IMG/VR virus record: IMGVR_UViG_3300040801_003693
Coordinates: 1-64,000 of that record
From: a virus
Reading direction: 5' to 3' (one strand)
Length of the DNA: 64,000 nucleotides
Shown here piece by piece: positions 2,356 to 61,760 of the stretch. The notes beneath the pieces were generated by a model. The model did not search any database. It saw only the letters and a list, made by a program, of their open reading frames with translations, and was not told where the DNA came from. Numbering within the stretch: the stretch's first letter is position 1; the number at the start of each line of letters is the position of its first letter. The position numbers and the translations under genes were made by a program.

Positions 2356-3456
2356 TTATTGTTCTGACATCTTTAAGTATTTTTGATAGGACTCATTATC
2401 AAAAATACTACCCATTAAACTTAACTTCTTTGGACCTTCCATATTTTTATATTTATTTAACAACATAGATATTCCTAATGTAGTTATTTCCAAACCTTGT
2501 TCGTGTTCCGATTCTCCAATAGCTACCATAATATCTATTACAGCTTCTAAGTTTTCTTCCTCATTAACAAAGTTAACCAAACGATACACAAGACCATAAA
2601 GACCATAAATACTTTTAATACTATTGATAATACCAAGTCTTTTTTTTGAATTGCTTTGAAATAAGACCGTTATATCAGGAGTTTCTTTTAGTTCCTGAAG
2701 AGTATGCACAAATTCGGCGTAGGCTATTTTACCTATCCTACCTCTAATCAAATCTTCAAGTAAAGAAAAGTCGTTTGGATTATCATTACTGTTCAGAAAA
2801 TCAGAAACAGTTTTCCATGACCGGGGAGAAGGAATAATAGTAGATGTGTCCTCTTCTTTTGACTCGACTATTGAACCCTGTGAATCTAAGAACTCTGGCT
2901 TTAATTTTATAAAAGTTAATACTGCTTCATGCAGCTTATTTTTACTAGCCCATTTCAGCCAAGTTTCTACAGAGGAGTCAACAAGGATATGAGTAAATCT
3001 ATCTTTGAGTGCTGCTCCCATCTCAAACAAGTTGTCTAGGTCTTCATTGTAATTTCCGGCTGCTATTACTAACCAGTCTTTTGGAAGAATATAATCGCCA
3101 ATTCTTCGATCTAGAATTAATTGAAATGCAGCCGTTTGTAATCTTTGGTCTGCGTGGGGTAGTTCGTCTAAAAATAGAATTCCCTGACCTTCTGTTGGGA
3201 GAAAATCTGGGGTAAGCCAAGTAGTTGTATGTTGCTCATGATTAAAGAAAGGTAGTCCTTTTAAATCTTCTGGTGCCATTTGACTTAAACGAACATCAAT
3301 TAATTCTATCTTTTGATTTTTGCAAAACTCTTTTACGATTGTAGATTTACCAATACCAGGATTGCCCCAAATAATAGCTGGCTCTTTAGTCTTATATAAA
3401 ATAGGGATAAGCTGCTGTAACTTTTCTGTATTGATTGGATTAGTATTAATTTCCAT
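2356..3456 (-). CDS. MoxR-family AAA+ ATPase
   Basis: Walker A GNPGIGKS, Walker B LFLDE, AAGN, ALKDRF, SPRSW; adjacent to the VWA protein. Confidence 0.9.
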   Translation of the reverse strand: MEINTNPINTEKLQQLIPILYKTKEPAIIWGNPGIGKSTIVKEFCKNQKIELIDVRLSQMAPEDLKGLPFFNHEQHTTTWLTPDFLPTEGQGILFLDELPHADQRLQTAAFQLILDRRIGDYILPKDWLVIAAGNYNEDLDNLFEMGAALKDRFTHILVDSSVETWLKWASKNKLHEAVLTFIKLKPEFLDSQGSIVESKEEDTSTIIPSPRSWKTVSDFLNSNDNPNDFSLLEDLIRGRIGKIAYAEFVHTLQELKETPDITVLFQSNSKKRLGIINSIKSIYGLYGLVYRLVNFVNEEENLEAVIDIMVAIGESEHEQGLEITTLGISMLLNKYKNMEGPKKLSLMGSIFDNESYQKYLKMSEQ

Positions 3457-34694: not shown

Positions 34695-35864
34695 TTACAA
34701 ATTGTCAAGATCAAATTCATCATCATCATCATCATCATCATCCTCTGAAGTAGAAACAGTAGTAGTAATTACTGTTGTAGTAACAGTAGATTCAGTATAA
34801 ACAGTAGTATCAAGAGTTTCCTCATCAATACTATTGAATAAATCTTCAAAAGACATTTCTTCCTCCACGGGAGAAGATTGTTCTACTACAGTTTCCTCTA
34901 ATGGTTTCTCTACAGTAGACTCAACTACAGTTTTCTCCTTAGATTCCTCAATAGCAGATTCAATTACAGTTTCCTCCTCTTGCTCACGAAGTCTTTTGTC
35001 TTCATGAAGCTTTTTCATTAGGTCTAGAAAACCTTTACTTTCAAGTGGAGATATCTTTTTTGCTTCAGAAGTTTCAACTTTCTTCCCATTAAAAGCAATC
35101 CGATCGCCACTGGTTTCAATCTCCCTTACTAATTTTTCACCTCCAGTAATAAGTTCAGCATGAAGAATGTCCCGTAGCATCAATCGCAAATCTATTCCTT
35201 CATTCTTAGAGTTTTCTTTGAATCTGTCGATCATATCTCTTATGTCTACTAAGAATTGAAACTGGATATATTTGCTGTTATTAATTAACTCACACATAAC
35301 CTCCCAAGATTTCTTTTGCAACATTCTAGATTGGTTATTTGTTAAACTGCTAGAACTCCTTCCTGCTTTTGCAGTGTAAGGTTTAACGAGTTTAGCTAAG
35401 AAACTTACAGGAATATCTATACGCCAGTTAAGCTTACGGTTTGCAAGTTCAGGCATAAATATTCCAGCATTCTCATACTGGGCAAGACAGATTTCTCCAC
35501 CCTGTTTTTCTATTCCATAACCATTGGAATGGACTAACATAGGAGTTTCAAATCCTTCTTTGTTACTTCTAGTGAAATAACCCTGAAAACCCCGATAGGT
35601 AGTAGCACCCGTTTTGTTATACAGACTTAATTGGGCACGAGAAATAGATAGGATTAAAAGCTTTCCATGCTCTCTTAGCTCTTCTTTGTCTAACACCTCC
35701 GCTTTATCGATATAATAGTTAAATAATTCCTCATGTGAAAGAGGAGTTACTTTAAGTTCAGCTTCTGCTTGAACAGAGTTATCAACCTTACTATTATTAG
35801 TAGCAGGAGTAACAGTGTTGTTATTTTTAGCAGAGTTGTTAGCGAAATAGTTGCTTAAAGACAT
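34695..35864 (-). CDS. acidic-tailed hypothetical protein, paralog of 41220..42125
   Basis: start moved to MSLSNYF after the AAGGAAAA leader; GYFTRSNKEGFETP...LNWRIDI vs GFITKSGKAGIQTP...INWKFNL; ends DDDEFDLDNL. Confidence 0.7.
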   Translation of the reverse strand: MSLSNYFANNSAKNNNTVTPATNNSKVDNSVQAEAELKVTPLSHEELFNYYIDKAEVLDKEELREHGKLLILSISRAQLSLYNKTGATTYRGFQGYFTRSNKEGFETPMLVHSNGYGIEKQGGEICLAQYENAGIFMPELANRKLNWRIDIPVSFLAKLVKPYTAKAGRSSSSLTNNQSRMLQKKSWEVMCELINNSKYIQFQFLVDIRDMIDRFKENSKNEGIDLRLMLRDILHAELITGGEKLVREIETSGDRIAFNGKKVETSEAKKISPLESKGFLDLMKKLHEDKRLREQEEETVIESAIEESKEKTVVESTVEKPLEETVVEQSSPVEEEMSFEDLFNSIDEETLDTTVYTESTVTTTVITTTVSTSEDDDDDDDDEFDLDNL

Positions 35865-36000
35865 TATGATTTTCCTTTTGATAAGTGTGTTAAGGATTAA
35901 CCTCACCAAAAGAAAAAGGGGACATAAGTCCCCTTTTTTTATTAATTACTTACGTAAAGCTCGACGGGGGAATCTTCCCTCGTCAGACTTTACAAATGCA

Positions 36001-37281
36001 TTACATATTATCGAATGCATCTGGCTCTTCATTATTATCAGAACCTTTTACCTTAGAACGTACAGAAACAATTCTATCCATATAGGATATAATCTTTCTA
36101 GTAGAAATTTCCATTAAAGAATCTCCACTAAAATGTTTTTGCACAAACTTTCGGTCGAGAAAGTTGATTAAAGCTTTCTTCTGCGCCTTGTGATGAATTG
36201 CACTTATACCAAGACCTTGTGCAGCACGACGATGAATCATACATAAGATAGCCAACTGTTTAACCTCTTCAGCATTAAATCCCGAAAAGGTATAAGCCAT
36301 TAGATTTGGACACTTCTTCTCATTGAAGTTTCCACGCTCTAATAACTTGGCGATCGCACACAAGTTAAACGCACATCTGATTAATTCAAATACCTCCGTA
36401 GTTTTACATTTGTCAGTCCAGTTTTTACCAAATACTGCTTTCCATTCTTCCTCCGGCGAAGAATAATTCTCGGACTTATACTCTCCACGATACTCAGCGC
36501 TGTACATATTAAACAAGAAAGTTAATATCTCTGGGTTCATACCACCCAAAGGACCCCCCTCATACTGTCCTAACTCAGCAGCAATAAAAGCATTTGGGAA
36601 TGCTTTCAAGTATTTGGTACCGAATTTTGTTTTTAGTTCAGCGGATTGAACTGTTAACCCGTGAAGAAACAGTAAAGCAGACATCATTCCAAAGGTTAGC
36701 GGAACACCCACTAGTTTGTAGTTAGTGACTGTTTTAGAAAGATTGTCCTCCAAATCTTTGCAAGTAAAAGCAGCACCAGGAATACCTCCCCATTTGCTAC
36801 AATCAATGCTATCTTTTTGGACATCATAATCCTTACTAGCTTTCTCTAACAGTTGTGTTAGAGTGAGCCATTTTGTAGATACGCATTTCTTTGTATCTTT
36901 AGGACTTTGATAATAATCCCCAAATATTTCCCAATTCTCCGGAGAGCCGTGGATAATATGTGAAGCACGTATACCGTGGATACTTCCTTTGGGAGCTAAT
37001 CTTTCTGCTGTCTTTGTAATGAATATATCCTCTAACTCTTCATTTGAAATACACTGCATACTATTCTCAAGCATATCGTCAATTTTAAATTCAGAATGCC
37101 GCTTTAGTTCTGGTGCGGCTGATTCTTCTTCTAAATCAAACATCCATTCGTCAACAAAATTATCGATTGCTACTTGAGCATTTACCTCACCTAGAGGATT
37201 TTCTAAATGTGTAGCAAAGTTATTAATTAAGTCTTCAAAGGATTCGGAAGAGTTGTTGGAATTGTTATCGTGATTAGACAT
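36001..37281 (-). CDS. hypothetical, candidate RNAP-associated subunit
   Basis: 426 aa in the RNAP-like cluster; ends PDAFDNM. Confidence 0.65.
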   Translation of the reverse strand: MSNHDNNSNNSSESFEDLINNFATHLENPLGEVNAQVAIDNFVDEWMFDLEEESAAPELKRHSEFKIDDMLENSMQCISNEELEDIFITKTAERLAPKGSIHGIRASHIIHGSPENWEIFGDYYQSPKDTKKCVSTKWLTLTQLLEKASKDYDVQKDSIDCSKWGGIPGAAFTCKDLEDNLSKTVTNYKLVGVPLTFGMMSALLFLHGLTVQSAELKTKFGTKYLKAFPNAFIAAELGQYEGGPLGGMNPEILTFLFNMYSAEYRGEYKSENYSSPEEEWKAVFGKNWTDKCKTTEVFELIRCAFNLCAIAKLLERGNFNEKKCPNLMAYTFSGFNAEEVKQLAILCMIHRRAAQGLGISAIHHKAQKKALINFLDRKFVQKHFSGDSLMEISTRKIISYMDRIVSVRSKVKGSDNNEEPDAFDNM

Positions 37282-37333
37282 TGTAATTTTCCTTTTGTGT
37301 TAAATTTTATGTACGTTTAACCGTACTCAAAAA

Positions 37334-37446
37334 AAGAGGGAGACTAAACAATTAACAATTATCAATTAACAATTATCAATGTAAGAATTATTTTCCTTTA
37401 TTGTTAATTGTTTACTGTTTATTGTTAATTGTTTTATCTCCCTCTT
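37334..37446. repeat. STRR-like heptamer palindrome inside a terminator hairpin
   Basis: aagagggaga (CAATTAA/CAATTAT)n ... (TTGTTAA-type)n tctccctctt. Confidence 0.85.
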
Positions 37447-37486
37447 AATTGCTAGTAATAAAATTTACTAGCAATCGTTACAAAAA

Positions 37487-38785
37487 CTACATATCGTCTG
37501 GGTCGAATTGAGCTTCACCACTTGTACCTACACGATTAACGAGGGCACAACGGTTAAAGATTTTAGTAACTTTATCCACCGCACGCTCAAACAAATGCAG
37601 TTTCATTCCCTTATATTCGATAAGAGAAATACCAGTAGCAAGCGCTGCTAAACCAGAACGTATATCATCTCCCTGGTGTTGAGGAAATGATACAATACCA
37701 AAATAATTTAGCAGTCTATAAAGTTCTACTACCGCCTGGGGAGACGATGCATTACTTATCTCAAAACCTATACCTCCTGTTGAGTGATATTTAAAGTTGA
37801 TATCAAGCATTCCATCTTTGGAATACTCAATACATTCATTGAAAGTAGATTTGTTCCCATACATTTGTATAGGAGTTGCAAGGTTAGTACCCTTTTGTCT
37901 TAGTAAGTAACCAAAACTTTTACGAGTCAAACCAGACTTAAGTAACCCAACGAGCATATTACCCCACAAGTCGTGAGATTCCATGAGGAACCCAAAATAA
38001 TTTTCAGGTGTAGTTTCGTTGTCTACATTTGCGATGTAGTATCTATTACGAGGTACAAAAGCGGGATTAATTATCTCAAAAGAATTAGCATCCCAACGCA
38101 ACCAAATCAGATAACCAAAGCTTGTGATAGCAAAGATATCTGGATCTTTTGGATCTACTTTTACCGCAATGGATTTAAAGTAATCTCTCCACATTTGATA
38201 GGGAAGATTCATAATCTGAGAGCGAACCAAGTCCGCATTCGTGATTAAACTTACTTTCTTAGCAGCAATACATTCGGGAACTTTTTCAGGAAGCTCCTTA
38301 ATGATAATTACTCCTTCCTCTGCGGCTTCTTCGTAGCCATAGATTACTTGGGCATTCATACCTTCAAAGAATGCTGTCTCTGCATTTTTATCGGCATTCT
38401 CATCTAGCCAATAAAGTTTATGTTCAACCCAAGCTTCGACAATTGCTGGTGGAACTAAGTATCCTTTCTCCGCTTTGACTATTTCCATCCATCGCAGAAC
38501 AGCGTTAAGCTTAGCTATCCCTGTTTCTTCTAAAAGTTTAGGATCGCAAAACTGAGAAAAGATTTCATAGTCAATAGGAGTGTAAGACATTTCCACTCTT
38601 TCAGCCTTCATTTCTTCGGGCTGGTCTTCGTCGTATTCTACAGGTAAATCCATGAACAACCCATACCACCATGCTTCTAAAGCAGTGATGTCTATACTAC
38701 CTTCATCAAAGCGATCCATAATTGAGTCATATAGATCGACTAAAGTTTCAGCAATACCGTTAGATTGATTGTCTAAGTTAGCCAT
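37487..38785 (-). CDS. hypothetical, candidate RNAP-associated or C-terminal subunit
   Basis: start moved to MANLDNQ (GGAG SD); LFERAVDKVTK; ends QFDPDDM. Confidence 0.65.
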   Translation of the reverse strand: MANLDNQSNGIAETLVDLYDSIMDRFDEGSIDITALEAWWYGLFMDLPVEYDEDQPEEMKAERVEMSYTPIDYEIFSQFCDPKLLEETGIAKLNAVLRWMEIVKAEKGYLVPPAIVEAWVEHKLYWLDENADKNAETAFFEGMNAQVIYGYEEAAEEGVIIIKELPEKVPECIAAKKVSLITNADLVRSQIMNLPYQMWRDYFKSIAVKVDPKDPDIFAITSFGYLIWLRWDANSFEIINPAFVPRNRYYIANVDNETTPENYFGFLMESHDLWGNMLVGLLKSGLTRKSFGYLLRQKGTNLATPIQMYGNKSTFNECIEYSKDGMLDINFKYHSTGGIGFEISNASSPQAVVELYRLLNYFGIVSFPQHQGDDIRSGLAALATGISLIEYKGMKLHLFERAVDKVTKIFNRCALVNRVGTSGEAQFDPDDM

Positions 38786-38834
38786 GTGTTTCTCCAATAT
38801 ATTTGTTTATGTGCGGTTTAATGCACTCAGAAAA

Positions 38835-38943
38835 AAAGGGGGTAATCAATTAACAATAACCAGTAAACAATTAACAATGAAGAAAAATTTTTCTTGCATT
38901 GTTTATTGTTCATTGATAATTGTTAATTGGTTTGTCCCCCTTT
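38835..38943. repeat. STRR-like heptamer palindrome inside a terminator hairpin
   Basis: ggggg...caattaa caataac cagtaaa caattaa caatgaa...inverted copy...ccccc. Confidence 0.85.
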
Positions 38944-38965
38944 ATAACTAACGCGCTCACTATCT

Positions 38966-41050
38966 TTATTTCAATCTAACTGTTGCTTGTTCTGCTACAG
39001 TATGACTGGTGTTAGGATATAGTTTGCGGAATAATCTTGGTACGCTTTTGATACACTCTAAATTCTTAGGATTTTTCACCCAAGACATTAGTGCATCAAT
39101 ACTCAAGAAGTTACAAAGATCGCCGTCGTCATCTCCGTTGTTACCTCCGTACCACTCGATTGCAGGCACCGTCAGACAAGCTTTAGCAACTAACTGTTTA
39201 TCCCTAACGATGTCAGGAAACTCGCAGTATTCTGTTGCAGGACCAACTATTTTAACTACTGCAAATAAATAGCTGGGATTTGGGTTACGCCATACTAATA
39301 GACGCTTACCTTGAAGCTTGCCAGCCCAAGGATCGTTGGAAGCAAGATAAACCTCACCTTCAGTTACCCAACTGGCTTCAATACCACGAACCTTCATCGT
39401 GTATACCCGCTTACCACTCTTAGTAGCGTTCTTTAGCGGAGTGTTTCTCCCTTCCCCAAACTCGTCGTCTCCTACTACGCTCTGCTTGCAACAGCTAACG
39501 TAAATGTTCAACAACTGGTCTCGGGTAGAAGTCCAGTCTTTTGGACGGTCATCAGGATGTACACCATAATGTCTTATGATATCCACAATACACTTAGCAA
39601 CTAAATTTACACCTCCTTCGGGAGTTAATCCCATGATTTTTGCTAACTCAGTAGAAACCCAAACATCATAACCACCCCCATGAGTAATTACTAAATTGTT
39701 TGGTGCAGCTTTTAAAATACTGCTAATAGAAGACGCATCCTCAAATTCAACGTAGTTTTTATCAGTCCAATAAGTAGCTCCCTTGGGAGTTTTCTCATAG
39801 GCAACGTCGAGAAGAATTGACATCTCCCTTTCGTTCTGATAGCCTGTAGCTTTTAAAGCCAAGCCTAAATCGTTATTGATATTATGGATGGACTGCAAAC
39901 CTTCCCAATAAATCTTACCGGAACCGTTAGAAGAACGGTTTTCCTCAGTCAAAGACAGTTCAGTTGTAGTATGATGCATACCAAAGATTGCGTCTCCGGT
40001 AATAAACATATAGTTTCCACAAAACGAAACGTTCTGTTTCCCCTCATACTGCTTTTTAAGAACAGTAATAAATTCGTCACGGAAGTAACGAACTCCTACA
40101 ACTTTACGAGTTGAAGCGTCAATGAACTGATTAATTTCTCCGATTTGCTTATTGGTAGGAAATGAAGTAATACCAGATGCTCCTTCTACATCTACTTCAC
40201 GAATCTTCATTACCGAACTTTCTCCAGTCATGCAGTACTTAGTGGAAGCCCAAAGCTGTTTAGAAATTTGAGAACCTTTGATTCCCTCCGAACCAACAGC
40301 AACTTTTACGTGGGGTATACGTACAGCAGTTTCGTTCAGAATATTTTGAACGTTTGTAAAATGTTCCCCGATAGATTCGTAGAGTACGAACCCACCATAA
40401 TCCATTAAATCCTCCAAGTTTTTACAAATTGGATTGGGAACAAAACACATTTTGGCAGCTTCACCCGCAACTTTTTGGTTATTGCAGTTACGTGTAATAT
40501 GCTTACCAATGACGCGCAATCTTAACTGACCGCTGGAACTACCCTTCTCAAAATCTAAATCAGTATATTTTATTTGTGGCAACGCTGTAATTAGGAATTC
40601 AAAATCTTCTCCTTTACTATATTGAGCGGCGTTAACAAATGTTCCCGTACCCAATAAGTCTTCTTGAAATATTTTGTCCCCTGGCTTTAATACGTCACCA
40701 ACACGTACCAAATACTTGATACGTGAGCGAACTGCTTTAAGTCTTTCATCCCACTCCATCTTCGGATCTAAATTCCAAACAGAAAGTTGAAACTTAAGAT
40801 TTGCCTCGATTTCATGAAATTCAGTACCAGCAAAGTACACTGACCCAGATACTCCAGGATTTAAAATCGCTTGCAGGTTATAAGAAATAACTGTGCTTCT
40901 ATGTGCCCCCTTCTGACACACAGTCTCTTCTTCAGACTCAAATACTATTGGTGCTTCAACCCCAATGGTACTTTGTGTTGCGGATAATCTGTTGAGACCA
41001 TCTGCTAATTGAGCAGCGGATAAAGAAGCGATTTGTTTGATGTAGCTCAT
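38966..41050 (-). CDS. compact single-chain two-barrel RNA polymerase-like protein
   Basis: LLVWRNPN...NNGDDDGD (beta' RxP and DxDGD), plus beta-like VRVGDVLKPGDKIF and NQKVAGEAAK upstream. Confidence 0.7.
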   Translation of the reverse strand: MSYIKQIASLSAAQLADGLNRLSATQSTIGVEAPIVFESEEETVCQKGAHRSTVISYNLQAILNPGVSGSVYFAGTEFHEIEANLKFQLSVWNLDPKMEWDERLKAVRSRIKYLVRVGDVLKPGDKIFQEDLLGTGTFVNAAQYSKGEDFEFLITALPQIKYTDLDFEKGSSSGQLRLRVIGKHITRNCNNQKVAGEAAKMCFVPNPICKNLEDLMDYGGFVLYESIGEHFTNVQNILNETAVRIPHVKVAVGSEGIKGSQISKQLWASTKYCMTGESSVMKIREVDVEGASGITSFPTNKQIGEINQFIDASTRKVVGVRYFRDEFITVLKKQYEGKQNVSFCGNYMFITGDAIFGMHHTTTELSLTEENRSSNGSGKIYWEGLQSIHNINNDLGLALKATGYQNEREMSILLDVAYEKTPKGATYWTDKNYVEFEDASSISSILKAAPNNLVITHGGGYDVWVSTELAKIMGLTPEGGVNLVAKCIVDIIRHYGVHPDDRPKDWTSTRDQLLNIYVSCCKQSVVGDDEFGEGRNTPLKNATKSGKRVYTMKVRGIEASWVTEGEVYLASNDPWAGKLQGKRLLVWRNPNPSYLFAVVKIVGPATEYCEFPDIVRDKQLVAKACLTVPAIEWYGGNNGDDDGDLCNFLSIDALMSWVKNPKNLECIKSVPRLFRKLYPNTSHTVAEQATVRLK

Positions 41051-41101
41051 GTAATTTTCCTTTTTATGAATTCCGGATTTGTTCCGGTATGACTCAATAA
41101 A

Positions 41102-41212
41102 AAGGGGGATTAGTCAATTAACAATGACCAGTAAACAATTAACAATGAAGAATAATAGTTCTTACATTGTTTATTGTTAATTGATAATTGTTAATTGTTT
41201 ATCTTCCCCCTT
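41102..41212. repeat. STRR-like heptamer palindrome inside a terminator hairpin
   Basis: ggggg...caattaa caatgac cagtaaa caattaa caatgaa...inverted copy...ccccc. Confidence 0.85.
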
Positions 41213-41219
41213 CTAAAAA

Positions 41220-42125
41220 TTACATATTATCTAAATCACTTTCTTCCTCCGTTAATTCATTAAATAAAGACTGTATCTCTGCATCAATATATTCTATTTT
41301 TATATTTGATTCAAAGTTATTTAAATCAAGTTCTCTTGAAGATTCAATTACAGTTTCTTCTTCCTCTATTTCTAATCTCCTTTTTAGATGGTCTGTAACT
41401 TTTACTTTATTGACATAATCATTTGATTCTTCTACAACTCTTCCTTTCATTCTGTCCATAACAGAGCTAGGTCTATCTACCTTATGGATATAATCATCCC
41501 CCGGAGAGACAAGCTTTATTGCATATATCTCTGGTTTAGATATAAATACAGTAAATGCTTGGGTTGTTTTACCGTTTGCTAGTGGAATAGTTTTTAGTTC
41601 TCCTACACCTTTTGAAGAATCCGCAGATTTTACAACCATCATTTGAATCTGTAACTTCTTACGAGCAGTTACATACTCGTAAAATTTACGCCACAGATTT
41701 CCTTCTCCTTGAACGGTAGTTTTTTCTATGCCTAACATTTCTCTAATTAGAGGGGCAGAAAGATTAAACTTCCAGTTAATTGGAATCCCATGTAGCTCAG
41801 AATTATGGGATTCTAAGTTTCTAGAGATATCATCAAATTCTGTTAGTTCAATTTTTCCTTCTGAGTTGGGTTGTATTCCCCATCCTCTCCAAGAAGTTAG
41901 GAATGGAGTTTGAATTCCCGCTTTTCCTGATTTAGTTATAAACCCATTGTTTACAGTAACGGTTGTCCCACCAGTACTAGACGACTTTTGCTCCGGTCCT
42001 GATAATGATAAGGTCAGTACAAATCCGTTCTCTTTCACCCAGGAGCGATCGCACTCTTGTGTAAGGTCAACTAAGTTGTTAAAAATTTCTTGTAAAGACC
42101 ATTTACCGTTCTTTGAAATAGCCAT
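41220..42125 (-). CDS. acidic-tailed hypothetical protein, paralog of 34695..35864
   Basis: start moved to MAISK (GAGGG SD after the leader hairpin); ends EEESDLDNM. Confidence 0.7.
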   Translation of the reverse strand: MAISKNGKWSLQEIFNNLVDLTQECDRSWVKENGFVLTLSLSGPEQKSSSTGGTTVTVNNGFITKSGKAGIQTPFLTSWRGWGIQPNSEGKIELTEFDDISRNLESHNSELHGIPINWKFNLSAPLIREMLGIEKTTVQGEGNLWRKFYEYVTARKKLQIQMMVVKSADSSKGVGELKTIPLANGKTTQAFTVFISKPEIYAIKLVSPGDDYIHKVDRPSSVMDRMKGRVVEESNDYVNKVKVTDHLKRRLEIEEEETVIESSRELDLNNFESNIKIEYIDAEIQSLFNELTEEESDLDNM

Positions 42126-42465
42126 AGTATATCCCTCTTTTTTATTTGCTCTAGACTTGTCAAATAAAAAGGGAACGGATTTTATGTTTGTCTTCATAAT
42201 AAAAACTATCTGGGTAGCAGCGTTATCTGTCGCTGTATTAATAAGTAATTTATTTGTTAGTCTTTTATACTTGTTTTTTGTAACAAAGAACAACTAGCAA
42301 TATTACTTAAATATTTTTATTATTTACTCAGATAATTTTATTCCTGTGTATGTATACTTAAGTATGTATACTTTTTATGTATTTTAAACTTCAATATTTA
42401 AGTAGGGGTATAGAATACTTATGGAACGAATTATTTTATACCTCACTCACATTATATTAAATTTT

Positions 42466-54926: not shown

Positions 54927-55284
54927 TTTAGAGGATTATAAAATATCCTATGAGGTGACAGTATTGCCCAACGTATTATATGCAGAATTAGTAAATGCAA
55001 AAACTCCTTTAGTGTTTGATAGTTTTTATATTCCAGAAGAGTTAAAAAATTTTGCGCTTGAATGTAGATTTATTCTTTACGACAAAGATGGAGGATGTGT
55101 AGAGTTTTCTAACAACATTACTTTGGAACAGCAAATAGTTTACACGTTAAATTTAGTTCCATTAAAGATGATACATAAATTATGTTCTTCAGTTAAAAAT
55201 CAATATTCAAAAGAATATCCTGTAATTGCGGGGTCTGATTCAATAGCAGATTCTTCTACGCTATCTTCTAATGATTCAACATAA
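54886..55284 (+). CDS. hypothetical protein, likely start 54916; overlaps the giant gene tail-to-tail
   Basis: 122-132-aa ORF. Confidence 0.5.
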   Translation: MFLQIYRMHSMNINLEDYKISYEVTVLPNVLYAELVNAKTPLVFDSFYIPEELKNFALECRFILYDKDGGCVEFSNNITLEQQIVYTLNLVPLKMIHKLCSSVKNQYSKEYPVIAGSDSIADSSTLSSNDST

Positions 55285-58200
55285 AGTGCTTGTTGAGTAG
55301 CACTACTGATTTCTTCATCTCCGGAGAAAGTAGAATAAGTAATATACTGAGTCATTCCATCTTCAGCGTACACTGCAACATCATCAACTGTATTCTGTTC
55401 ATCTGTTTGTCTTACTTCTCTAATATAATTTTCAGCGTGTTGTAAAGTAGTTTCTAATATAGAAGGTTGAGGGGAATCAACTATAAAGTTTTGTATTTGT
55501 TGACCAACCATCATTCCTAATATAGTAGATGCAATTGCACCAACTCCAGTGCTAATTATTCCTCTCATATTATTATATTTATCCATATCCAAAGACATCT
55601 TTGCCTGACCGAAAGGTGTCATTTTATTCATGAGTACATTACTAAAATATTCAGTACCGAACATACCGATAGCACTCATAGTCATTTCTCGTGCAGCTAA
55701 ACCTGCAATTGCCTTACCCGTATCACCATCACTATTAGCGATCGCCATTCTTGCTTTAAAAGCAGTACCGGATGCAACTTGAGCTACACCCCCAGCACCT
55801 TTGCTCATACCTTTGGTACCTAGCATATAAGATTTAACGTGCATAGCAGAACTAATAGAGTTACCCATTACCTGTTGGAATGCCTCTGGGTTAACTTCAC
55901 CAGAAGCCAGAGCCTGACCTGCCATAATAAGTGCGGGTAAGAAAACTAATTCAGCAGCGAGATCGGCGTTTCTTGTTCCGGCTAATTTACCAAAAGCAGA
56001 TTTAGAAGCTTTAGTATTTAGTCGAGGATTATGTCTTGTCGAATATCCTTGTTGAGATTCTTGAATAATTTGACGAGTTACTTCTTCCATTACATCTATA
56101 TCGGGGTCTGCAACACCTGCTGCTACTTTAGTTTGAATTTGTCTCTGAACTACATTTTTAGCTTCTTCTTGAGATAGTCCCATTGCAGTTAAATTCTTTA
56201 CCATACCTTCGGCAGTATAGGTTTTAGAAGGATTAAGATTATTAGTACCTTCATAGATTTTCATTACAGAGTTTGCCATTGCTCCAAACTGAGTAGAGTT
56301 TAATCTACTCATAATTAGTTCGCTTGAGCCTTCAGCAGATTGAATAAGCTGTTTGTAAAATTCCATTAGCTGCATTTTATCAGGGGCATTACTTAATCCT
56401 CCTTGCTCCATTAATTTTAAAAGTAATTCATCCGGTTGTAACTGATGGTTATTATCTTTACTTTTAAAAGTGGCTAACATAGAATTCATAAAATATGCCA
56501 TTGACTGAGGGGAAATCTTTCCTGCTGTTGCAAGCTGTACGTAAGCAGCACTTGTAGGGTCTTGAGAAATATCCATTGTAGAACTTTCCCCTTTAGAACC
56601 AGAACTCAGTTTACTTCTTACTTGATTGTAATTAGCAAACTCTACTAATTTCTCTCCTTTCTCCCCGGCAAAAGTTTCAATTGATTGCTTCATCTGAACG
56701 TACTGATGAGCGTGAAGCAATTTATCTTCTGTTGATATTTTACTGTAATGTTCTATTACATCTTTTCCTACTAAGCTTTTAAAACTTTCATAATATTCTT
56801 GCTGCTCGATGCTTAAGGTATCAAAGTAGTTTTTATCTCTAACAACTTCTTCCATACCTTGAACTAAATAATCTAATTTAGATTTTTCCTGTACCAATTC
56901 TGGACTATTTAAGTTCTTCATCAACATACTTTGCAAAGTTCTGCCTGTTGATTCTGCACTGTTCCAAGCTTTATTTTCTGCATCATAAGAAAGTTCTTGA
57001 CCTCTAGCTTTCTCAAATGCAAATGCTGTAGCTAAATTTAATAAATCTTGTTTAGTTTTATAAGATGCAACCAATGCCATTTTATTTACGTTCATTTCAT
57101 TGATTGGTTTATAATCAGAAGATACTGCGGTTTTAATACTAGTTGCAATTTCTCCTTGTTCATCTACAAATCCCAATCTTTTCATATAGTGTTTTTCTAC
57201 ATTGGAATCAGATATATTAATTTCAAATCTTCCCAAAACTTCTGCTTGAGCATTCTTATTCTTTTCATCTGTATATTCTGTCTTTAAAGTTTGTACTGTA
57301 TTAACTAATTTATCTAACTGCACTAAAGATTTTAATCCTGTACCAGGACCAAACTTACCTACAATTAAATCGATTATTCTTTCTCTATCTTCATCACTAT
57401 CTGCATTACGATAAGATTCAATGTCTTTATTAATTTCATTTAAAAATTCAACAGAATCTTTTGGCTTAATCGAATCTCGCATTAACTGATTTATAATTTG
57501 TAAGAATCCACCCATTTGCATAGAACGGGCACGTCCGGATTCAGCAGACTTCATCATATCAGTATAAGCATCCTCTCCCATATTTGCTTTTACCATATCT
57601 CCAATCTTCCCATCTGTATCGTTTTCCAATAAAAATGACAATGCTAAAAAAGGAGATTCAGTATATAACAAAGAAGCCATACTATTATACGTCTTGCCTA
57701 AAATCACAGAACCAGCTTGACCTAAAGTCTTGAGCATCATCTCCCACTGATCTGTATTTACTGCCGTACCCGCAGTACCTCTAGATTGATATTTAGATAA
57801 CTGTTCCCCAGCAGAAGTTGTAGAAAATATTCTTGTAACGTAGTCAGTAATACCTTCCTCTCCGGAGGAGACAGCCTGTTGTAAATCGGTTCTAATTTGC
57901 TCTCTATATTCAGGAGTAGATTCTAATAGTGATTTAGCAAAAGTGTTTTGTGGATCTTGTCCAATCAGCATTGTTTTAAATGCTTCATCATTCATTAAGG
58001 CTTCTTTATCTTGAGCAATACTAGTTACTGCTTGATGTAAAGGACGAATGTTATTAATAACATCTTCCATCCCTCCAAATAATCCTCTACCTTGCTCAAT
58101 TAAAGTAAACAGTGTTCCAGTATCCATACCTCCTAAAATCTTCTCATCTACTTTAAGATAATTGGAAACGTACTTGACGCTAGCCTTTCTCATCTCTTGC

Positions 58201-61200
58201 ATTGATGTAGATTTATTAGCTAGCTCTACTGAATGCTTTAAGTCATCTCTTTGCTGTACTAATCTAGAAATTTTAGTATCGGTCTTTTCTAATTCAGCTT
58301 GCATTATAGCTAGCTTTTCTGGATCTGTAGTTTGGGGTAGTCTCTGTTCTATTTTAGATTTACTTATTTCGTAGCGAGCAATTAATTGATTTGTTTGCTC
58401 TACTCTCAACTCAGTAGTTTTCATGTTACTAATAATTGCAGATACCGAGTCCCCATCAAAGTCTCCTCCTTGAGATTGATAAGGTCCTATTGGATTAATC
58501 ATTCCTAATGTCTGGTTTCTTTTACCAGAGAATCTAATTGATACCCCCATCTCTTCTAAAGAATTATCTAAATCTTCTAAATTAAAAACATTGTATTGAG
58601 TAAGTTTATTAATCTCAAAGTTTCCTAAAGGAGGAGATCTCCACATTTGAGTCTGTGATAAGTTTAAATTAGTAAAAGTATGAGTAATTAATGATTCTAA
58701 TCTTTGATTAATAGTTTTTAAATCTATCGGAGTAGCACTAGGGTTTAAATCTGTTTCTAACTGTGATACTCTACTATTAAACTTTTCAATATGAGAATTC
58801 ATTTGACTCTTCTTAAAAAAGTCTCCGTAATCTGCTTCTAATCTTTCTACATAATCTGATACTATCTTCTTAGTACTAGCAATTTTTGATTGAATAGTAT
58901 TCGCATCAATGTTAACTCTGTCTTGATGCATTTGATTTAAAAGCTTTGTAGTACCTTTTCTTAACTCCCCTTCTAGAGAACTAACTCTAAGTTTGGGAAC
59001 AAATGTATTACTACTTCCTAATTGCAATCCTTCTATTACAGTAGGAGTTTGTCTAAAATATCTTTCTTGAGAAGTAATATTTTTTAAAGTCTTTTTACTT
59101 AATACTTCATCTTTATTATTTCTAAATATAAACTCCTTCCCTGGAGAATTCATACTATTAACAGCCATGCTTTGCAACAAATGCATTTCGGATACTGCTG
59201 TTAGTCTTACATAGTAATCACCCTCTGCACTGTTAGCATTCCTTTTTAAACCTTGATAGTATTCAATTCTTTGTTCAATATCAGAAGCAATTTTCATTAA
59301 ATCAGAATCGTTTTCCGCACTTTGTATTCTAGATACTAAATGTTTTGATTCACTGACTAAAGTATTTAAATCGTAAGTACCTACTGGAGAAATACCTTGG
59401 TGTAACATTTTATATTGAGATTCAATCAACTTTCTTTCTGTTGAAATCCTACCTTTACGTCTTATTAAATTCTTACGTTGAGCTTCCAACTCTGGACTAA
59501 TTGAATTACCTCTAGCTAATCTTTCAACAGTTGATTCAGGAGTTTCTCCCACTGTTTTATTTGGACTTATATCTTCTAATTGTTTTGCAATGTTGTTTAG
59601 ATTCTTATCTACTTTTTTAATTCTTTTATCTAGTACTGCGATCGCCTTTAATCTATCTTCCGCTGCGGCTCCTCCAAACTTATTGAACAAAGCTTCGGGA
59701 CCAATTAGTGCTTTTTCTGGAACAAACAAAGAGGCAGCGGCTGTAAAAGTACTACCATCTAATCCTACTCTGGCACCAAATTGAGTTTGGAATCTAGAAT
59801 TAATTAATTCTGATTGAACTTCAATTGGAAAGTTAAGTGCTGTTTCTTGAAATGTTTCAATCTTCTTAGCCATATCTGAAGCAATCTCAAACTCTCCCGT
59901 TTCACTATCACTTAAATAAATTTTGTCTAATACTTGGTCTACATCACTACGAGCAGCTAATCCTTCCCACAATACTAATTGAGACTTAACTGTTTCTGCT
60001 ACAAATTCTCCATATTGATCCCCTAACACTTTAAGGTCATCAGGAGCTAGCGTAAAACTAGTAATAGTTCTCTTCTTATCAAACTTTACTTTATTACCTT
60101 CTACTACTAAATGCGGAAAAGAAAACGCCATGCGACTAGCACCAGTTACCTGCATTCCTTTAATTACCGCCTGGGAGTGAGATATATCTCCTAACTTGTT
60201 TTCTAACAATTTATACTGGGTAGAAATGTCTTCTAATTCACCCATTGTAGTTGAGAGTCCGATACTAACTGTAGCTTGTATTTGTCCTAACGTTGCTCCA
60301 CTTTTAATCTGAGTTATTAAAGACTTTGCATATTCACTATCTCTTGCAGCTATTAAAGATTTGTTTTTAGTATCTCCTTCTAATATTGTCAGCAGCATTT
60401 CTTTTTCTGAAGAGGAATATCTAAACCCAGCAGCAGAAGTAATCTCTTTTAATGTAGAGAATAAAGAGTACTTTCCTTTATATACTTTAAAATCTTGAGC
60501 AGTAATTACACCACTATCATAAAATCCGATAAACTGACTTTTAAAATAAGAACTTCTAGCAGTACTGCTAATTAAATCTACTGCTTCTAAATTATTAGTT
60601 GCAGCAATAAATTGAGTTTGAGAACCACCATATATAGAGCCAAGTACACTAGACAATACATTTCTTAATGCAGGTACGTTTCCTTTACTTAATGCTCCCG
60701 CTTGCGTACTGTATTCCTCTCCTACTAAATGTTGTGCTTCTAAATAAGCTTTGTTTCTAGAAGACATTGATACTTTAGATTGAGAACCAGCAGTAGAAGA
60801 AAACATACCTACTACTCTAGAATAATTAGCAATTCTATTTAAAATAGAACGAGCTTCTTTTCTCTTCTCTTCATTATCTAAATTATTTATATCTTCCCCG
60901 GCGATAAAAGCTAATTTGTTTAAAGTTACATCATCATCTAAGTTAGCTGCTTCAACTGCAATCTGGTCGGCTCCCATTAACTGTAAGGTTAAATCTATTC
61001 CTCCAGCAAGCATTCCTAATTCTCTACCACGACCAGAACTATCTAAATTTAAATAGCCATTTTTGATTATGTCTCCAGTAGGGTCACTGAGTAAATTACT
61101 GACTTTAGATTTTAATCTAACATCTGCTCCTCTTACTCCCGCTAAAGTATCGGCAATATCCTGCATTGATATGTAACCTAAAGTGCGAATGTTAATGTCA

Positions 61201-61760
61201 CTTACATCCGACTTCATTGAATTTATTAGCTGCTCTGCTATATCTATATCTGTAGGGTTTGTGCTGTCCCCCATTTTAGTTGTTAATGTTTTTAACTTAT
61301 ACATATCTGATAAATAGTTACCTAAACCAGCACCTGCTGATAGTCGGGTTAATTCACTTAATGCAGCTTGCTTTCCAGTTTGGTCAAACATCTCCGTACC
61401 AAAACTAAGCATTAAAGATGCAGCTAAAGTTTTACTATCGTTGTTTAGCAAAGCATCTTTATATATTTGTCTACCCCCTTTTGTATAACTTAATATTTGA
61501 GCGCCATGCTCAAACATATAAGATTTAAAGTTAGAAGGGTTTGCTACTCCTTGAATTTGTTCTATACCAATACTGCTACCGAGGAAAGCACCTTTTGAAT
61601 TACGGTTCCATGATTGAGCTATATCTCTAATAAAAGTTCCGTAGGCATAAATAGGAACACCTTTAAATAAACCACCCGCTTGAGATTCATTTCTTCCCCC
61701 TGCATAATTTACTTTTGTTCTGTCATAATTAATTTCTACTAAAATTTCATTCGACTGCAT
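55200..61760 (-). CDS. giant virion-type two-barrel RNA polymerase, catalytic part plus tape-measure-like C-terminus
   Basis: GGLFKG; MWRSPP...QGGDFDGD; later ILGKTYN and RDSIKP; A/G/M-rich hydrophobic C-terminal region. Confidence 0.75.
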   Translation of the reverse strand: MQSNEILVEINYDRTKVNYAGGRNESQAGGLFKGVPIYAYGTFIRDIAQSWNRNSKGAFLGSSIGIEQIQGVANPSNFKSYMFEHGAQILSYTKGGRQIYKDALLNNDSKTLAASLMLSFGTEMFDQTGKQAALSELTRLSAGAGLGNYLSDMYKLKTLTTKMGDSTNPTDIDIAEQLINSMKSDVSDINIRTLGYISMQDIADTLAGVRGADVRLKSKVSNLLSDPTGDIIKNGYLNLDSSGRGRELGMLAGGIDLTLQLMGADQIAVEAANLDDDVTLNKLAFIAGEDINNLDNEEKRKEARSILNRIANYSRVVGMFSSTAGSQSKVSMSSRNKAYLEAQHLVGEEYSTQAGALSKGNVPALRNVLSSVLGSIYGGSQTQFIAATNNLEAVDLISSTARSSYFKSQFIGFYDSGVITAQDFKVYKGKYSLFSTLKEITSAAGFRYSSSEKEMLLTILEGDTKNKSLIAARDSEYAKSLITQIKSGATLGQIQATVSIGLSTTMGELEDISTQYKLLENKLGDISHSQAVIKGMQVTGASRMAFSFPHLVVEGNKVKFDKKRTITSFTLAPDDLKVLGDQYGEFVAETVKSQLVLWEGLAARSDVDQVLDKIYLSDSETGEFEIASDMAKKIETFQETALNFPIEVQSELINSRFQTQFGARVGLDGSTFTAAASLFVPEKALIGPEALFNKFGGAAAEDRLKAIAVLDKRIKKVDKNLNNIAKQLEDISPNKTVGETPESTVERLARGNSISPELEAQRKNLIRRKGRISTERKLIESQYKMLHQGISPVGTYDLNTLVSESKHLVSRIQSAENDSDLMKIASDIEQRIEYYQGLKRNANSAEGDYYVRLTAVSEMHLLQSMAVNSMNSPGKEFIFRNNKDEVLSKKTLKNITSQERYFRQTPTVIEGLQLGSSNTFVPKLRVSSLEGELRKGTTKLLNQMHQDRVNIDANTIQSKIASTKKIVSDYVERLEADYGDFFKKSQMNSHIEKFNSRVSQLETDLNPSATPIDLKTINQRLESLITHTFTNLNLSQTQMWRSPPLGNFEINKLTQYNVFNLEDLDNSLEEMGVSIRFSGKRNQTLGMINPIGPYQSQGGDFDGDSVSAIISNMKTTELRVEQTNQLIARYEISKSKIEQRLPQTTDPEKLAIMQAELEKTDTKISRLVQQRDDLKHSVELANKSTSMQEMRKASVKYVSNYLKVDEKILGGMDTGTLFTLIEQGRGLFGGMEDVINNIRPLHQAVTSIAQDKEALMNDEAFKTMLIGQDPQNTFAKSLLESTPEYREQIRTDLQQAVSSGEEGITDYVTRIFSTTSAGEQLSKYQSRGTAGTAVNTDQWEMMLKTLGQAGSVILGKTYNSMASLLYTESPFLALSFLLENDTDGKIGDMVKANMGEDAYTDMMKSAESGRARSMQMGGFLQIINQLMRDSIKPKDSVEFLNEINKDIESYRNADSDEDRERIIDLIVGKFGPGTGLKSLVQLDKLVNTVQTLKTEYTDEKNKNAQAEVLGRFEINISDSNVEKHYMKRLGFVDEQGEIATSIKTAVSSDYKPINEMNVNKMALVASYKTKQDLLNLATAFAFEKARGQELSYDAENKAWNSAESTGRTLQSMLMKNLNSPELVQEKSKLDYLVQGMEEVVRDKNYFDTLSIEQQEYYESFKSLVGKDVIEHYSKISTEDKLLHAHQYVQMKQSIETFAGEKGEKLVEFANYNQVRSKLSSGSKGESSTMDISQDPTSAAYVQLATAGKISPQSMAYFMNSMLATFKSKDNNHQLQPDELLLKLMEQGGLSNAPDKMQLMEFYKQLIQSAEGSSELIMSRLNSTQFGAMANSVMKIYEGTNNLNPSKTYTAEGMVKNLTAMGLSQEEAKNVVQRQIQTKVAAGVADPDIDVMEEVTRQIIQESQQGYSTRHNPRLNTKASKSAFGKLAGTRNADLAAELVFLPALIMAGQALASGEVNPEAFQQVMGNSISSAMHVKSYMLGTKGMSKGAGGVAQVASGTAFKARMAIANSDGDTGKAIAGLAAREMTMSAIGMFGTEYFSNVLMNKMTPFGQAKMSLDMDKYNNMRGIISTGVGAIASTILGMMVGQQIQNFIVDSPQPSILETTLQHAENYIREVRQTDEQNTVDDVAVYAEDGMTQYITYSTFSGDEEISSATQQALYVESLEDSVEESAIESDPAITGYSFEY

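Follow-up and report, generated by a model that had tools for sequence, protein, structure and literature searches.

A predicted two-barrel RNA polymerase core and its probable detached rear part in an uncultured relative of Microcystis cyanophages

Within the first 64 kb (positions 1 to 64,000, referred to here as the window) of the 135,938-bp virus record IMGVR_UViG_3300040801_003693, estimated to be 78% complete, the gene for a 694-amino acid protein, P0001, stops shortly after the codons for a GDDDGD motif. The locus raises the question whether P0001 could serve as the catalytic core of an RNA polymerase (RNAP) of the two-barrel type, and if so, which other gene supplies the bridge helix and the trigger loop. 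We are confident that P0001 is polymerase-like. With somewhat less certainty, it is probable that P0001, as the catalytic core, and P0003, the product of the next gene but one downstream, acting in trans, form a phage-encoded, DNA-dependent, non-virion RNAP of the two-barrel type.

The initial annotation, made from the nucleotide sequence, had assigned P0001 to an open reading frame (ORF) at 38966-41050 on the minus strand, and this assignment is correct. The ATG start codon is preceded by AAAAGGAAAATTAC, a good ribosome-binding site (RBS). All strings quoted in that annotation are present in the protein, namely VRVGDVLKPGDKIF (residues 115-128), QKVAGEAAK (192-200), LLVWRNPN (584-591) and NGDDDGD (638-644). 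The last of these was considered to be a variant active site, but it is the plain canonical DxDGD, and the relatives have D, V, G, I, S or A at the x position. The pattern D.DGD occurs twice in the six frames of the 135,938-bp contig, compared with 0.29 occurrences expected in stop-free stretches of at least 100 amino acids, and the catalytic motif of P0001 exceeds chance. The spacing of the RNP and GDxDGD elements presumably resembles that of the motif pair in RNA-dependent RNA polymerases (RdRPs). The lysines of QKVAGEAAK, K193 and K200, are kept in all eight covering rows of an alignment of 16 sequences of the P0001 family (A2), and also in the aligned gp064 protein of the Microcystis phage Ma-LMM01. 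We take a lysine pair in the GDK...NKG motif to be a conserved feature of the second barrel in the beta subunit, and K193 and K200 are candidate counterparts of these barrel lysines.

The claim that P0001 is polymerase-like is borne out by the predicted fold. The AlphaFold2 (AF2) model built on A2 reaches a predicted local distance difference test score (pLDDT) of 79.2 and a predicted template modelling score of 0.71. According to this model, P0001 is a single chain in which a beta-like barrel, a connector that opens with an invariant HHTTTELSLTEEN loop, and a beta'-like barrel with the Asp triad are fused in this order. The two features expected of the superfamily, a double-psi beta-barrel (DPBB) with the DxDGD motif (DPBB-A) and a second, beta-type barrel (DPBB-B), are thus both predicted. 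A Foldseek search of the PDB returned 202 matches with E<=0.001, and the best 50 of these 202 are all RNAP beta/Rpb2 or beta' chains, with a probability of 1.00 for the Rpb2/beta chains.

The VIA-align comparison with 48,161 chains, taken over its best 50 rows, gives a similar picture. The first row is QDE-1 (7y7p_A; Z 9.4, root mean square deviation (rmsd) 5.5, 284 aligned, P0001 residues 36-657). The beta-like region is matched by the C-terminal, barrel-bearing halves of beta/Rpb2 homologues, namely RPB2 of African swine fever virus (Z 9.2, residues 28-371), A135 of Pol I (Z 8.6, 27-369), Rpo132 of vaccinia virus (Z 8.4, 27-374) and bacterial beta (Z 8.3, 27-392). N-terminal portions from beta'-type subunits align over residues 418-658 (Pol I A190, Z 6.3; Pol II Rpb1, Z 6.2; archaeal A', Z 6.0), and isolated DPBB domains, namely the designed protein 7dww (Z 7.6, 80 aligned) and the N domains of Cdc48/NSF, align over residues 548-652 with an rmsd of 2.5-3 A. 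Phage enzymes are represented by P74 gp62 (Z 7.9, rmsd 3.8, 183 aligned, residues 48-655), P23-45 gp96 (Z 6.9) and the non-virion RNAPs of AR9 (Z 6.7) and phiKZ (Z 6.2), and the RdRPs additionally by ZmRDR2 (Z 6.1).

Among predicted viral structures (BFVD), 31 matches have E<=0.001. The best is an uncharacterized protein of the Microcystis phage MaMV-DC (E 2.4e-16, TMq 0.50, 632 columns), and further matches include RNAP subunits of poxviruses and giant viruses, a 'minor tail protein', and LEF-9 of baculoviruses and nudiviruses. Two uncharacterized proteins of the Acinetobacter jumbo phage vB_AbaM_ME3, A0A172Q0S6 (E 2.8e-10) and A0A172Q021_2 (E 2.9e-5), are also matched, and this phage may likewise carry unrecognised two-barrel polymerases.

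By its major head protein, which is 49% identical to that of Ma-LMM01 and MaMV (10 records), the phage appears to be an uncultured relative of the Microcystis cyanophages, from the same lineage as Ma-LMM01. The counterpart of P0001 in Ma-LMM01 is gp064 (NC_008562.1, 43811-48832), a 'hypothetical protein' of 1673 amino acids with the motifs RTP...NEGDADGD, from a family with members of 1331-1673 amino acids. A profile-profile comparison (hhalign) of the P0001 and gp064 families gives a probability of 98.95% (E 9.1e-18, 531 columns), with residues 43-654 of P0001 corresponding to 792-1362 of gp064. Like P0001, gp064 and its MaMV-DC homologue (phrog_30979), the best BFVD match mentioned above, have both barrels, an R.P...GDxDGD signature and the lysine pair; the WRNP residues of P0001 are replaced by RTP in gp064, and by RMP in the relatives P0023 and P0024. 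Unlike P0001, gp064 is a single chain with an N-terminal extension of approximately 790 residues and with the post-barrel part attached, whereas in the present contig two genes, with another gene between them, encode the core and the post-barrel part. In the contig, the gp064 profile matches only P0001 (E 5.1e-6). In the PHROG scan of the relatives, P0023 and P0024 alone find a match, phrog_30979, to which no function is assigned there. P0001 itself does not reach phrog_30979 by hmmscan, and therefore represents a sister family of gp064 rather than a member. Among four kin phage loci identified through the major head protein, which are 10-59% complete, the gp064 profile matches one, a 1410-amino acid open frame in G003. 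In Ma-LMM01, gp064 adjoins a 42-bp repeat array and gp054-gp063, which the available text of PMC5780444 names as early genes.

The P0001 family is rare. A word-indexed search of 5.8 billion proteins produced two matches, and a profile search of 1.84 billion representatives produced 20 proteins with E<=0.001; 15 of them have E values <=1e-10, and 7 have values <=1e-30. The closest homologue, P0006, is 62% identical. Near-invariant positions in A2 are R588, P590, G603, G639, D640, D642, G643 and D644. The motif region is covered by 15 rows of A2, and in all 15 the chain ends approximately 35-50 residues beyond the motif, down to an identity of 21%. Hence the short C-terminus is the normal state of the family. 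Some members are cut further: P0015 and P0019-P0021 (335-350 amino acids) consist of the C-terminal half only, and P0017, P0022 and P0025 of N-terminal parts only, so the family also occurs split between the two barrels.

These conservation data bear on the idea that P0001 is a decayed, non-catalytic remnant of a broken gp064-like gene, in a phage that uses the host RNAP alone. The idea draws on the contrast between the single long gene of Ma-LMM01 and MaMV (1673 amino acids) and the pieces found here, which are parted by another gene, and on transcriptomic data for Ma-LMM01, in which, according to the available text, sigma70-like motifs precede all gene classes and no phage-specific motif is reported (PMC5780444). 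Nevertheless, we consider it very improbable. P0001 retains an intact Asp triad, R.P motif and lysine pair, each of them near-invariant, the 694-codon frame is open with a good RBS, a chain end common to all 15 homologues speaks for a stable, selected architecture, and the homologues of P0003 are conserved as well (40-51% identity).

If P0001 is a working core, other parts of the enzyme must be sought elsewhere. The early stop past the catalytic motif had been recognised, although the distance is 50 residues after D644 and not about 45, and the stated absence of a bridge helix and a trigger loop from P0001 holds. As P0001 lacks both, it is very probable that the enzyme is spread over more than one gene, in agreement with the initial annotation. 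Two candidate genes for the missing part, those for P0002 and P0003, had been named there, and preference had been given to the former.

Homology evidence favours the product of 36001-37281, P0003, which had been listed merely as a third component. A relative of P0001 with 1146 residues, P0012, resembles P0001 up to a GDIDGD motif that ends at residue 740. In BLASTP, P0003 matches residues 819-1076 of the same protein (E 4e-10, 22% identity over 259 residues), and a hidden Markov model (HMM) of P0003 and its homologues P0046 and P0047 scores 33.8 bits against P0012 (E 2.1e-10), whereas none of 273 decoys, obtained by reversal or shuffling, scores above 2.4 bits. Approximately 140 residues of gp064, starting 15 residues after GDADGD, align with residues 92-265 of P0003 (hhalign E 9.9e-5, probability 58%) when the P0003 profile is supplemented with the P0012 tail. 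Conserved motifs in P0003 are T..NYK..GVP..FG and YEGGPLGGMNPE. Its closest homologue, P0046 (51% identity), and P0006 were each found on one Logan contig, with a recorded length of 7270 bp in either case, so the two are probably encoded on the same contig. Judged by this homology, P0003 is probably the detached rear part of the polymerase.

The alternative that the split runs between P0001 and P0002, with the bridge helix in P0002 and with or without a contribution of P0003, is unlikely. P0002 is encoded directly downstream of P0001, its gene is preceded by the same palindrome as those of P0001 and P0003 (see below), and it shares an acidic C-terminal tail with P0003, P0004 and P0005. The string LFERAVDKVTK that suggested a bridge helix is indeed present, but it is an inexact AVDxxK, and the pattern AVD..K itself has no match in the six frames of the contig. 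Apart from one 100%-identical fragment of itself, P0002 has no homologues. It resembles neither P0012 (best E 1.6) nor the gp064 family (hhalign probability 1.2%), and its ESM Atlas model has a pLDDT of 0.33 and no usable match. Moreover, only approximately 65 residues separate the Asp triad of P0012 from its P0003-like stretch, too few to accommodate a P0002-like part. The assignment of the bridge helix to P0002 is therefore not supported.

The split point had been called unusual, but it has close precedents. According to the available parts of PMC7598289, the beta'-like subunits of the virion and non-virion RNAPs of jumbo phages share a split after DPBB-A, and this site coincides with that of the cyanobacterial beta'. 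P0001 ends at the same position as the corresponding pieces of the phiKZ and AR9 RNAPs (PDB 7ogp, 7s00) and of cyanobacterial rpoC1/rpoC2. P0001 is distinctive in carrying the piece before the split in one chain with the beta-like barrel. In the phiKZ and AR9 enzymes, in contrast, beta and beta' are made as separate chains, with a further split within beta, whereas P0001 joins beta-like and beta'-N-like parts and does without the N-terminal half of beta. The separate beta and beta' of the jumbo-phage multisubunit type are thus not found in P0001, nor did it match any PHROG RNAP family.

Single-chain enzymes provide the other point of comparison. The non-virion RNAPs P23-45 gp64 and P74-26 gp62 and the virion RNAP gp96, which is fused to a tail tape protein (PDB 8f5m, 8h2n), have DPBB-B followed by DPBB-A, as does P0001, and the accessible text of PMC10770324 gives this domain order for single-chain two-barrel enzymes. 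Unlike P0001, they include the bridge helix and trigger loop in the same chain (PMC10770324, as far as available). Sequence similarity between P0001 and these RNAPs is undetectable in the PDB searches. Close known enzymes also include QDE-1 and plant RDR2, which are RNAi polymerases of eukaryotes, and YonO of SPbeta. QDE-1, the best structural match over the whole chain, differs similarly, in that its one chain includes the bridge helix. In its architecture, a core that unites beta and beta'-N while beta'-C is detached stands between the phage polymerases of the single-chain and of the multisubunit kind.

Several observations weigh against a two-barrel RNAP made of P0001 and P0003. At the sequence level, matches to polymerases in Pfam, PHROG, NCBIfam or the PDB are absent. 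Pfam contains no family for P0001 (E<=1) or for 15 relatives (E<=0.1), and the profile of the eukaryotic-type RdRPs that include QDE-1 (PF05183) does not match P0001 at E<=1, so that the likeness is structural only. Scans of Pfam, PHROG and NCBIfam found nothing for P0001-P0005, PDB sequence searches with the single protein and with the profiles A2 and A4 gave chance-level rows only, and tblastn with P0001 and P0011 against 50,697 phage records gave no match. Related loci were not found among viral (A1, A3), metagenome (A1, P0011) or genome (P0038) contigs. The A2 profile matched none of the four kin phage records, although their incompleteness makes such blanks weak. In the P0001 model, the catalytic loop (residues 637-643) is at pLDDT <50. 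Best Z values of 7-8 are common in models of proteins without true relatives, and even a Z of 9.4 is modest on its own, so it is the concordance of two methods and of many independent RNAP entries that carries the weight.

Further reservations apply to the second subunit. The two presumed halves are separated by P0002, an unrelated gene of 432 codons. Without P0012, the similarity of P0003 to gp064 falls to an hhalign probability of 3.8% (E 0.011) and an HMM score of 4.4 bits (E 0.18), and hhalign with the single sequence of P0012 against the gp064 profile gave nothing useful. Folded on its own, P0003 gives a poor model (pLDDT 51.6) that has no Foldseek match in the PDB with E<=0.001. The best VIA-align rows are helical proteins, with a glycyl-tRNA synthetase first (Z 6.8), and a row for the largest subunit of Pol V (Z 4.0) is indistinguishable from noise. 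As the model is poor and lacks an RNAP match, only colinearity with the fused relatives suggests a bridge helix in P0003.

A two-barrel enzyme need not be a transcriptase. P0001 might be a QDE-1-like RdRP, a primase-like RNA synthase that serves replication or a PolD-like DNA polymerase, although we regard this as rather unlikely. It would fit the whole-chain match to QDE-1, an RNA- and DNA-dependent RNAP, and the fact that no DNA polymerase was recognised among the scanned ORFs of the 78%-complete contig. The acidic tails of the flanking proteins presumably recall phage replication proteins such as single-stranded DNA-binding proteins, and we counted this in favour of another role. On the other side, most of the structural matches are to transcriptases that are DNA-dependent and come from cells, poxviruses, giant viruses and phages. 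The position of PolD outside the best 50 VIA-align rows says nothing for or against. The characterised phage two-barrel enzymes, P23-45 gp64 and gp96, are transcriptases according to the available text of PMC10770324.

We infer that the most probable role is that of a non-virion transcriptase. In the enzyme composed of P0001 and P0003, the beta-like barrel with K193 and K200 would face the beta'-like barrel with the Mg-binding triad D640, D642 and D644 within one chain of 694 residues, and the barrels would have the same order as in QDE-1 and the P23-45 and P74-26 polymerases. The P0001 chain stops immediately behind the beta' barrel, at a split site that recurs in other enzymes. P0003 would assemble with it and supply the bridge helix, the trigger loop and a C-terminal clamp element in trans. 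The complex would read a DNA template and transcribe part of the phage genome without the host enzyme, and P0002 and the paralogues P0004 and P0005 may be accessory subunits. The coordinates of all parts and of their surroundings are collected in Table 1.

Table 1. Coordinates, in the window, of P0001 and its parts, the neighbouring genes and the upstream palindromes
Feature	Position	Strand	Residues or length	Basis or remark
P0001, predicted catalytic core of a two-barrel RNAP	38966..41050	-	694 aa	ORF, AF2 model, structure matches
Beta/Rpb2-like region with second barrel (DPBB-B)	39932..40972	-	27-373	VIA-align, Foldseek
QKVAGEAAK with lysine pair K193/K200	40451..40477	-	192-200	alignment conservation
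Connector between the barrels (clamp-like)	39410..39931	-	374-547	position in model
Beta'-like DPBB-A	39095..39409	-	548-652	isolated DPBB domains align
WRNPNP	39275..39292	-	587-592	52 aa (start to start) before Asp triad
GDDDGD, DxDGD metal-binding triad D640/D642/D644	39119..39136	-	639-644	
Short helical C-terminal tail	38969..39094	-	653-694	secondary structure of model
P0002, between the two polymerase genes	37487..38785	-	432 aa	from ATG
P0003, probable second subunit	36001..37281	-	426 aa	homology to post-DPBB-A part of fused relatives
P0004, P0005 paralogue, possible accessory factor	34695..35867	-		tail ...DDDEFDLDNL; start inferred from RBS
P0005, P0004 paralogue	41220..42128	-		tail ...EEESDLDNM; start inferred from upstream sequence
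Palindrome copy 1	41095..41212			directly upstream of P0001
Palindrome copy 2	38831..38946			upstream of P0002
Palindrome copy 3	37333..37451			upstream of P0003

The genes around P0001 have features in common. P0005, encoded directly upstream of P0001, and P0004 (open frames 41220-42293 and 34695-35909, respectively, both on the minus strand) bracket the polymerase genes and are similar to each other in BLASTP (E 2e-13, 28% over 123 amino acids), with a common EEETVIES stretch and long acidic tails. P0005 has no usable match in the ESM Atlas, and no similarity to the gp064 family by hhalign. The four genes that flank P0001 end in related acidic peptides (P0005 ...SDLDNM, P0002 ...FDPDDM, P0003 ...AFDNM, P0004 ...FDLDNL) with the consensus F/L-D-x-D-N/D-M/L. 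A loose pattern for such tails is present in 5 of the 150 contig ORFs of at least 70 codons, and four of these are the immediate neighbours of P0001. Homologues of P0003 likewise have acidic and aromatic ends (...DDEFGGM, ...NEWEF). The last 25 residues of P0001, on the other hand, have a net charge of +4. It is tempting to suppose from these sequences that the acidic tails have a docking peptide in common.

The genes for P0001, P0002 and P0003 are each preceded by a copy of an imperfect, AT-rich palindrome of approximately 110 nucleotides, with arms of approximately 54 nucleotides and repeated TTAACAAT words. G5 and C5 flank the palindrome, and behind it come a T run, TGAGT and a small hairpin. 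The copies are 74-88% identical, and these three are the only ones between 34500 and 42500. The element may act as a terminator, as a site of RNase III-type processing or as an operator. In view of the shared palindrome and acidic tail, P0002 may still belong to the polymerase module, possibly as an accessory subunit. Hairpins of another kind are found further upstream, between 42900 and 52300 on the minus strand, where a short GC-rich hairpin with a T run precedes most small genes. A second small hairpin with the consensus CTTGATGTTTAnnTTCAAG follows, and its 3' arm runs into the ribosome-binding region. A search with the hairpin pattern found 22 matches, compared with 5.7 expected.

The second D.DGD motif of the contig (58449-58466) lies in a giant protein, encoded by a 2186-codon ORF at 55200-61760 on the minus strand. 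There, WRSPP is followed approximately 55 residues later by GGDFDGD, a spacing equal to that in P0001. The giant protein is split over two ORFs, this one and an upstream ORF of 1467 codons (contig positions 61896-66299, minus strand), and both match the 3562-position phrog_31006, and the motif region is kept in all nine matched records of Microcystis phages, including Ma-LMM01 and MaMV, at 30% identity. A segment of the 'PLD phosphodiesterase domain-containing protein' of Ma-LMM01 is among the BFVD matches of the P0001 model (E 1.8e-5). An hhalign comparison of the giant-protein region with A2 aligned only 25 columns around the motif (E 0.022), and phmmer with the giant protein against the PDB gave no matches. 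From its sequence, the giant protein probably carries a second polymerase module. By analogy with P23-45, one could speculate that it is a virion-type two-barrel RNAP. As P23-45 possesses a virion enzyme as well as a non-virion one (PMC10770324, available text), the contig may present a parallel to this pair.

A more far-reaching picture, which we consider doubtful, treats the five adjacent genes (34695-42293) as a single transcription apparatus with a novel architecture. In it, the acidic peptides of P0002-P0005 would dock on P0001, with its basic tail, and P0004 and P0005 would be alternative specificity factors that read the hairpins of the cassette array at 36-52 kb. Together with the giant-protein module, which would probably be injected, this machine would make Ma-LMM01-like phages largely independent of the host RNAP, in contradiction to how they are now described.

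The remaining content of the contig, which has a G+C content of approximately 32%, is that of a contractile-tailed phage. PHROG and Pfam scans identified tail sheath, baseplate, portal and major head genes, and also RIIA, a class II ribonucleotide reductase, ThyX, RecA/UvsX and PhoH. Among the ORFs put through these scans, none matched a known RNAP family. In the part of the genome for replication and nucleotide metabolism, a DUF2201 metallopeptidase/VWA-like protein and a MoxR-type AAA ATPase are encoded next to each other (1059-2279 and 2356-3456, minus strand). The listed sequencing runs that contain the sequence are three DNA runs from a single study, with no RNA run among them.

In the available text of PMC5780444 and PMC9927357, the cultured relatives are described as lacking an RNAP and as using host sigma70 throughout infection. 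For Ma-LMM01, the accessible part of PMC5780444 reports no phage transcription factors, and leaves open how the three temporal gene classes arise. A link between gp064 and polymerases was not found in the papers searched, and the phage DxDGD literature, as represented by the listed titles and first lines of abstracts, contains nothing on this lineage. The terms Microcystis, LMM01, cyanophage and YP_851078 are absent from the readable supplements of PMC10770324. The P0001 family may already be among the 23 RNAP families of Chaban et al. 2024.

On the present evidence, and contrary to the published descriptions, the lineage, including Ma-LMM01 gp064 and its MaMV-DC homologue, carries a two-barrel polymerase-like gene, to which a second module in a giant protein is probably to be added. 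The question how Ma-LMM01 makes its temporal gene classes without altering host transcription thus becomes testable in a cultured system of a bloom-forming cyanobacterium and its phage. Finally, since fused forms (P0012, gp064) and further-split forms (P0015, P0019-P0021) coexist within the family, it is useful for studying how far two-barrel polymerases tolerate fission and fusion.

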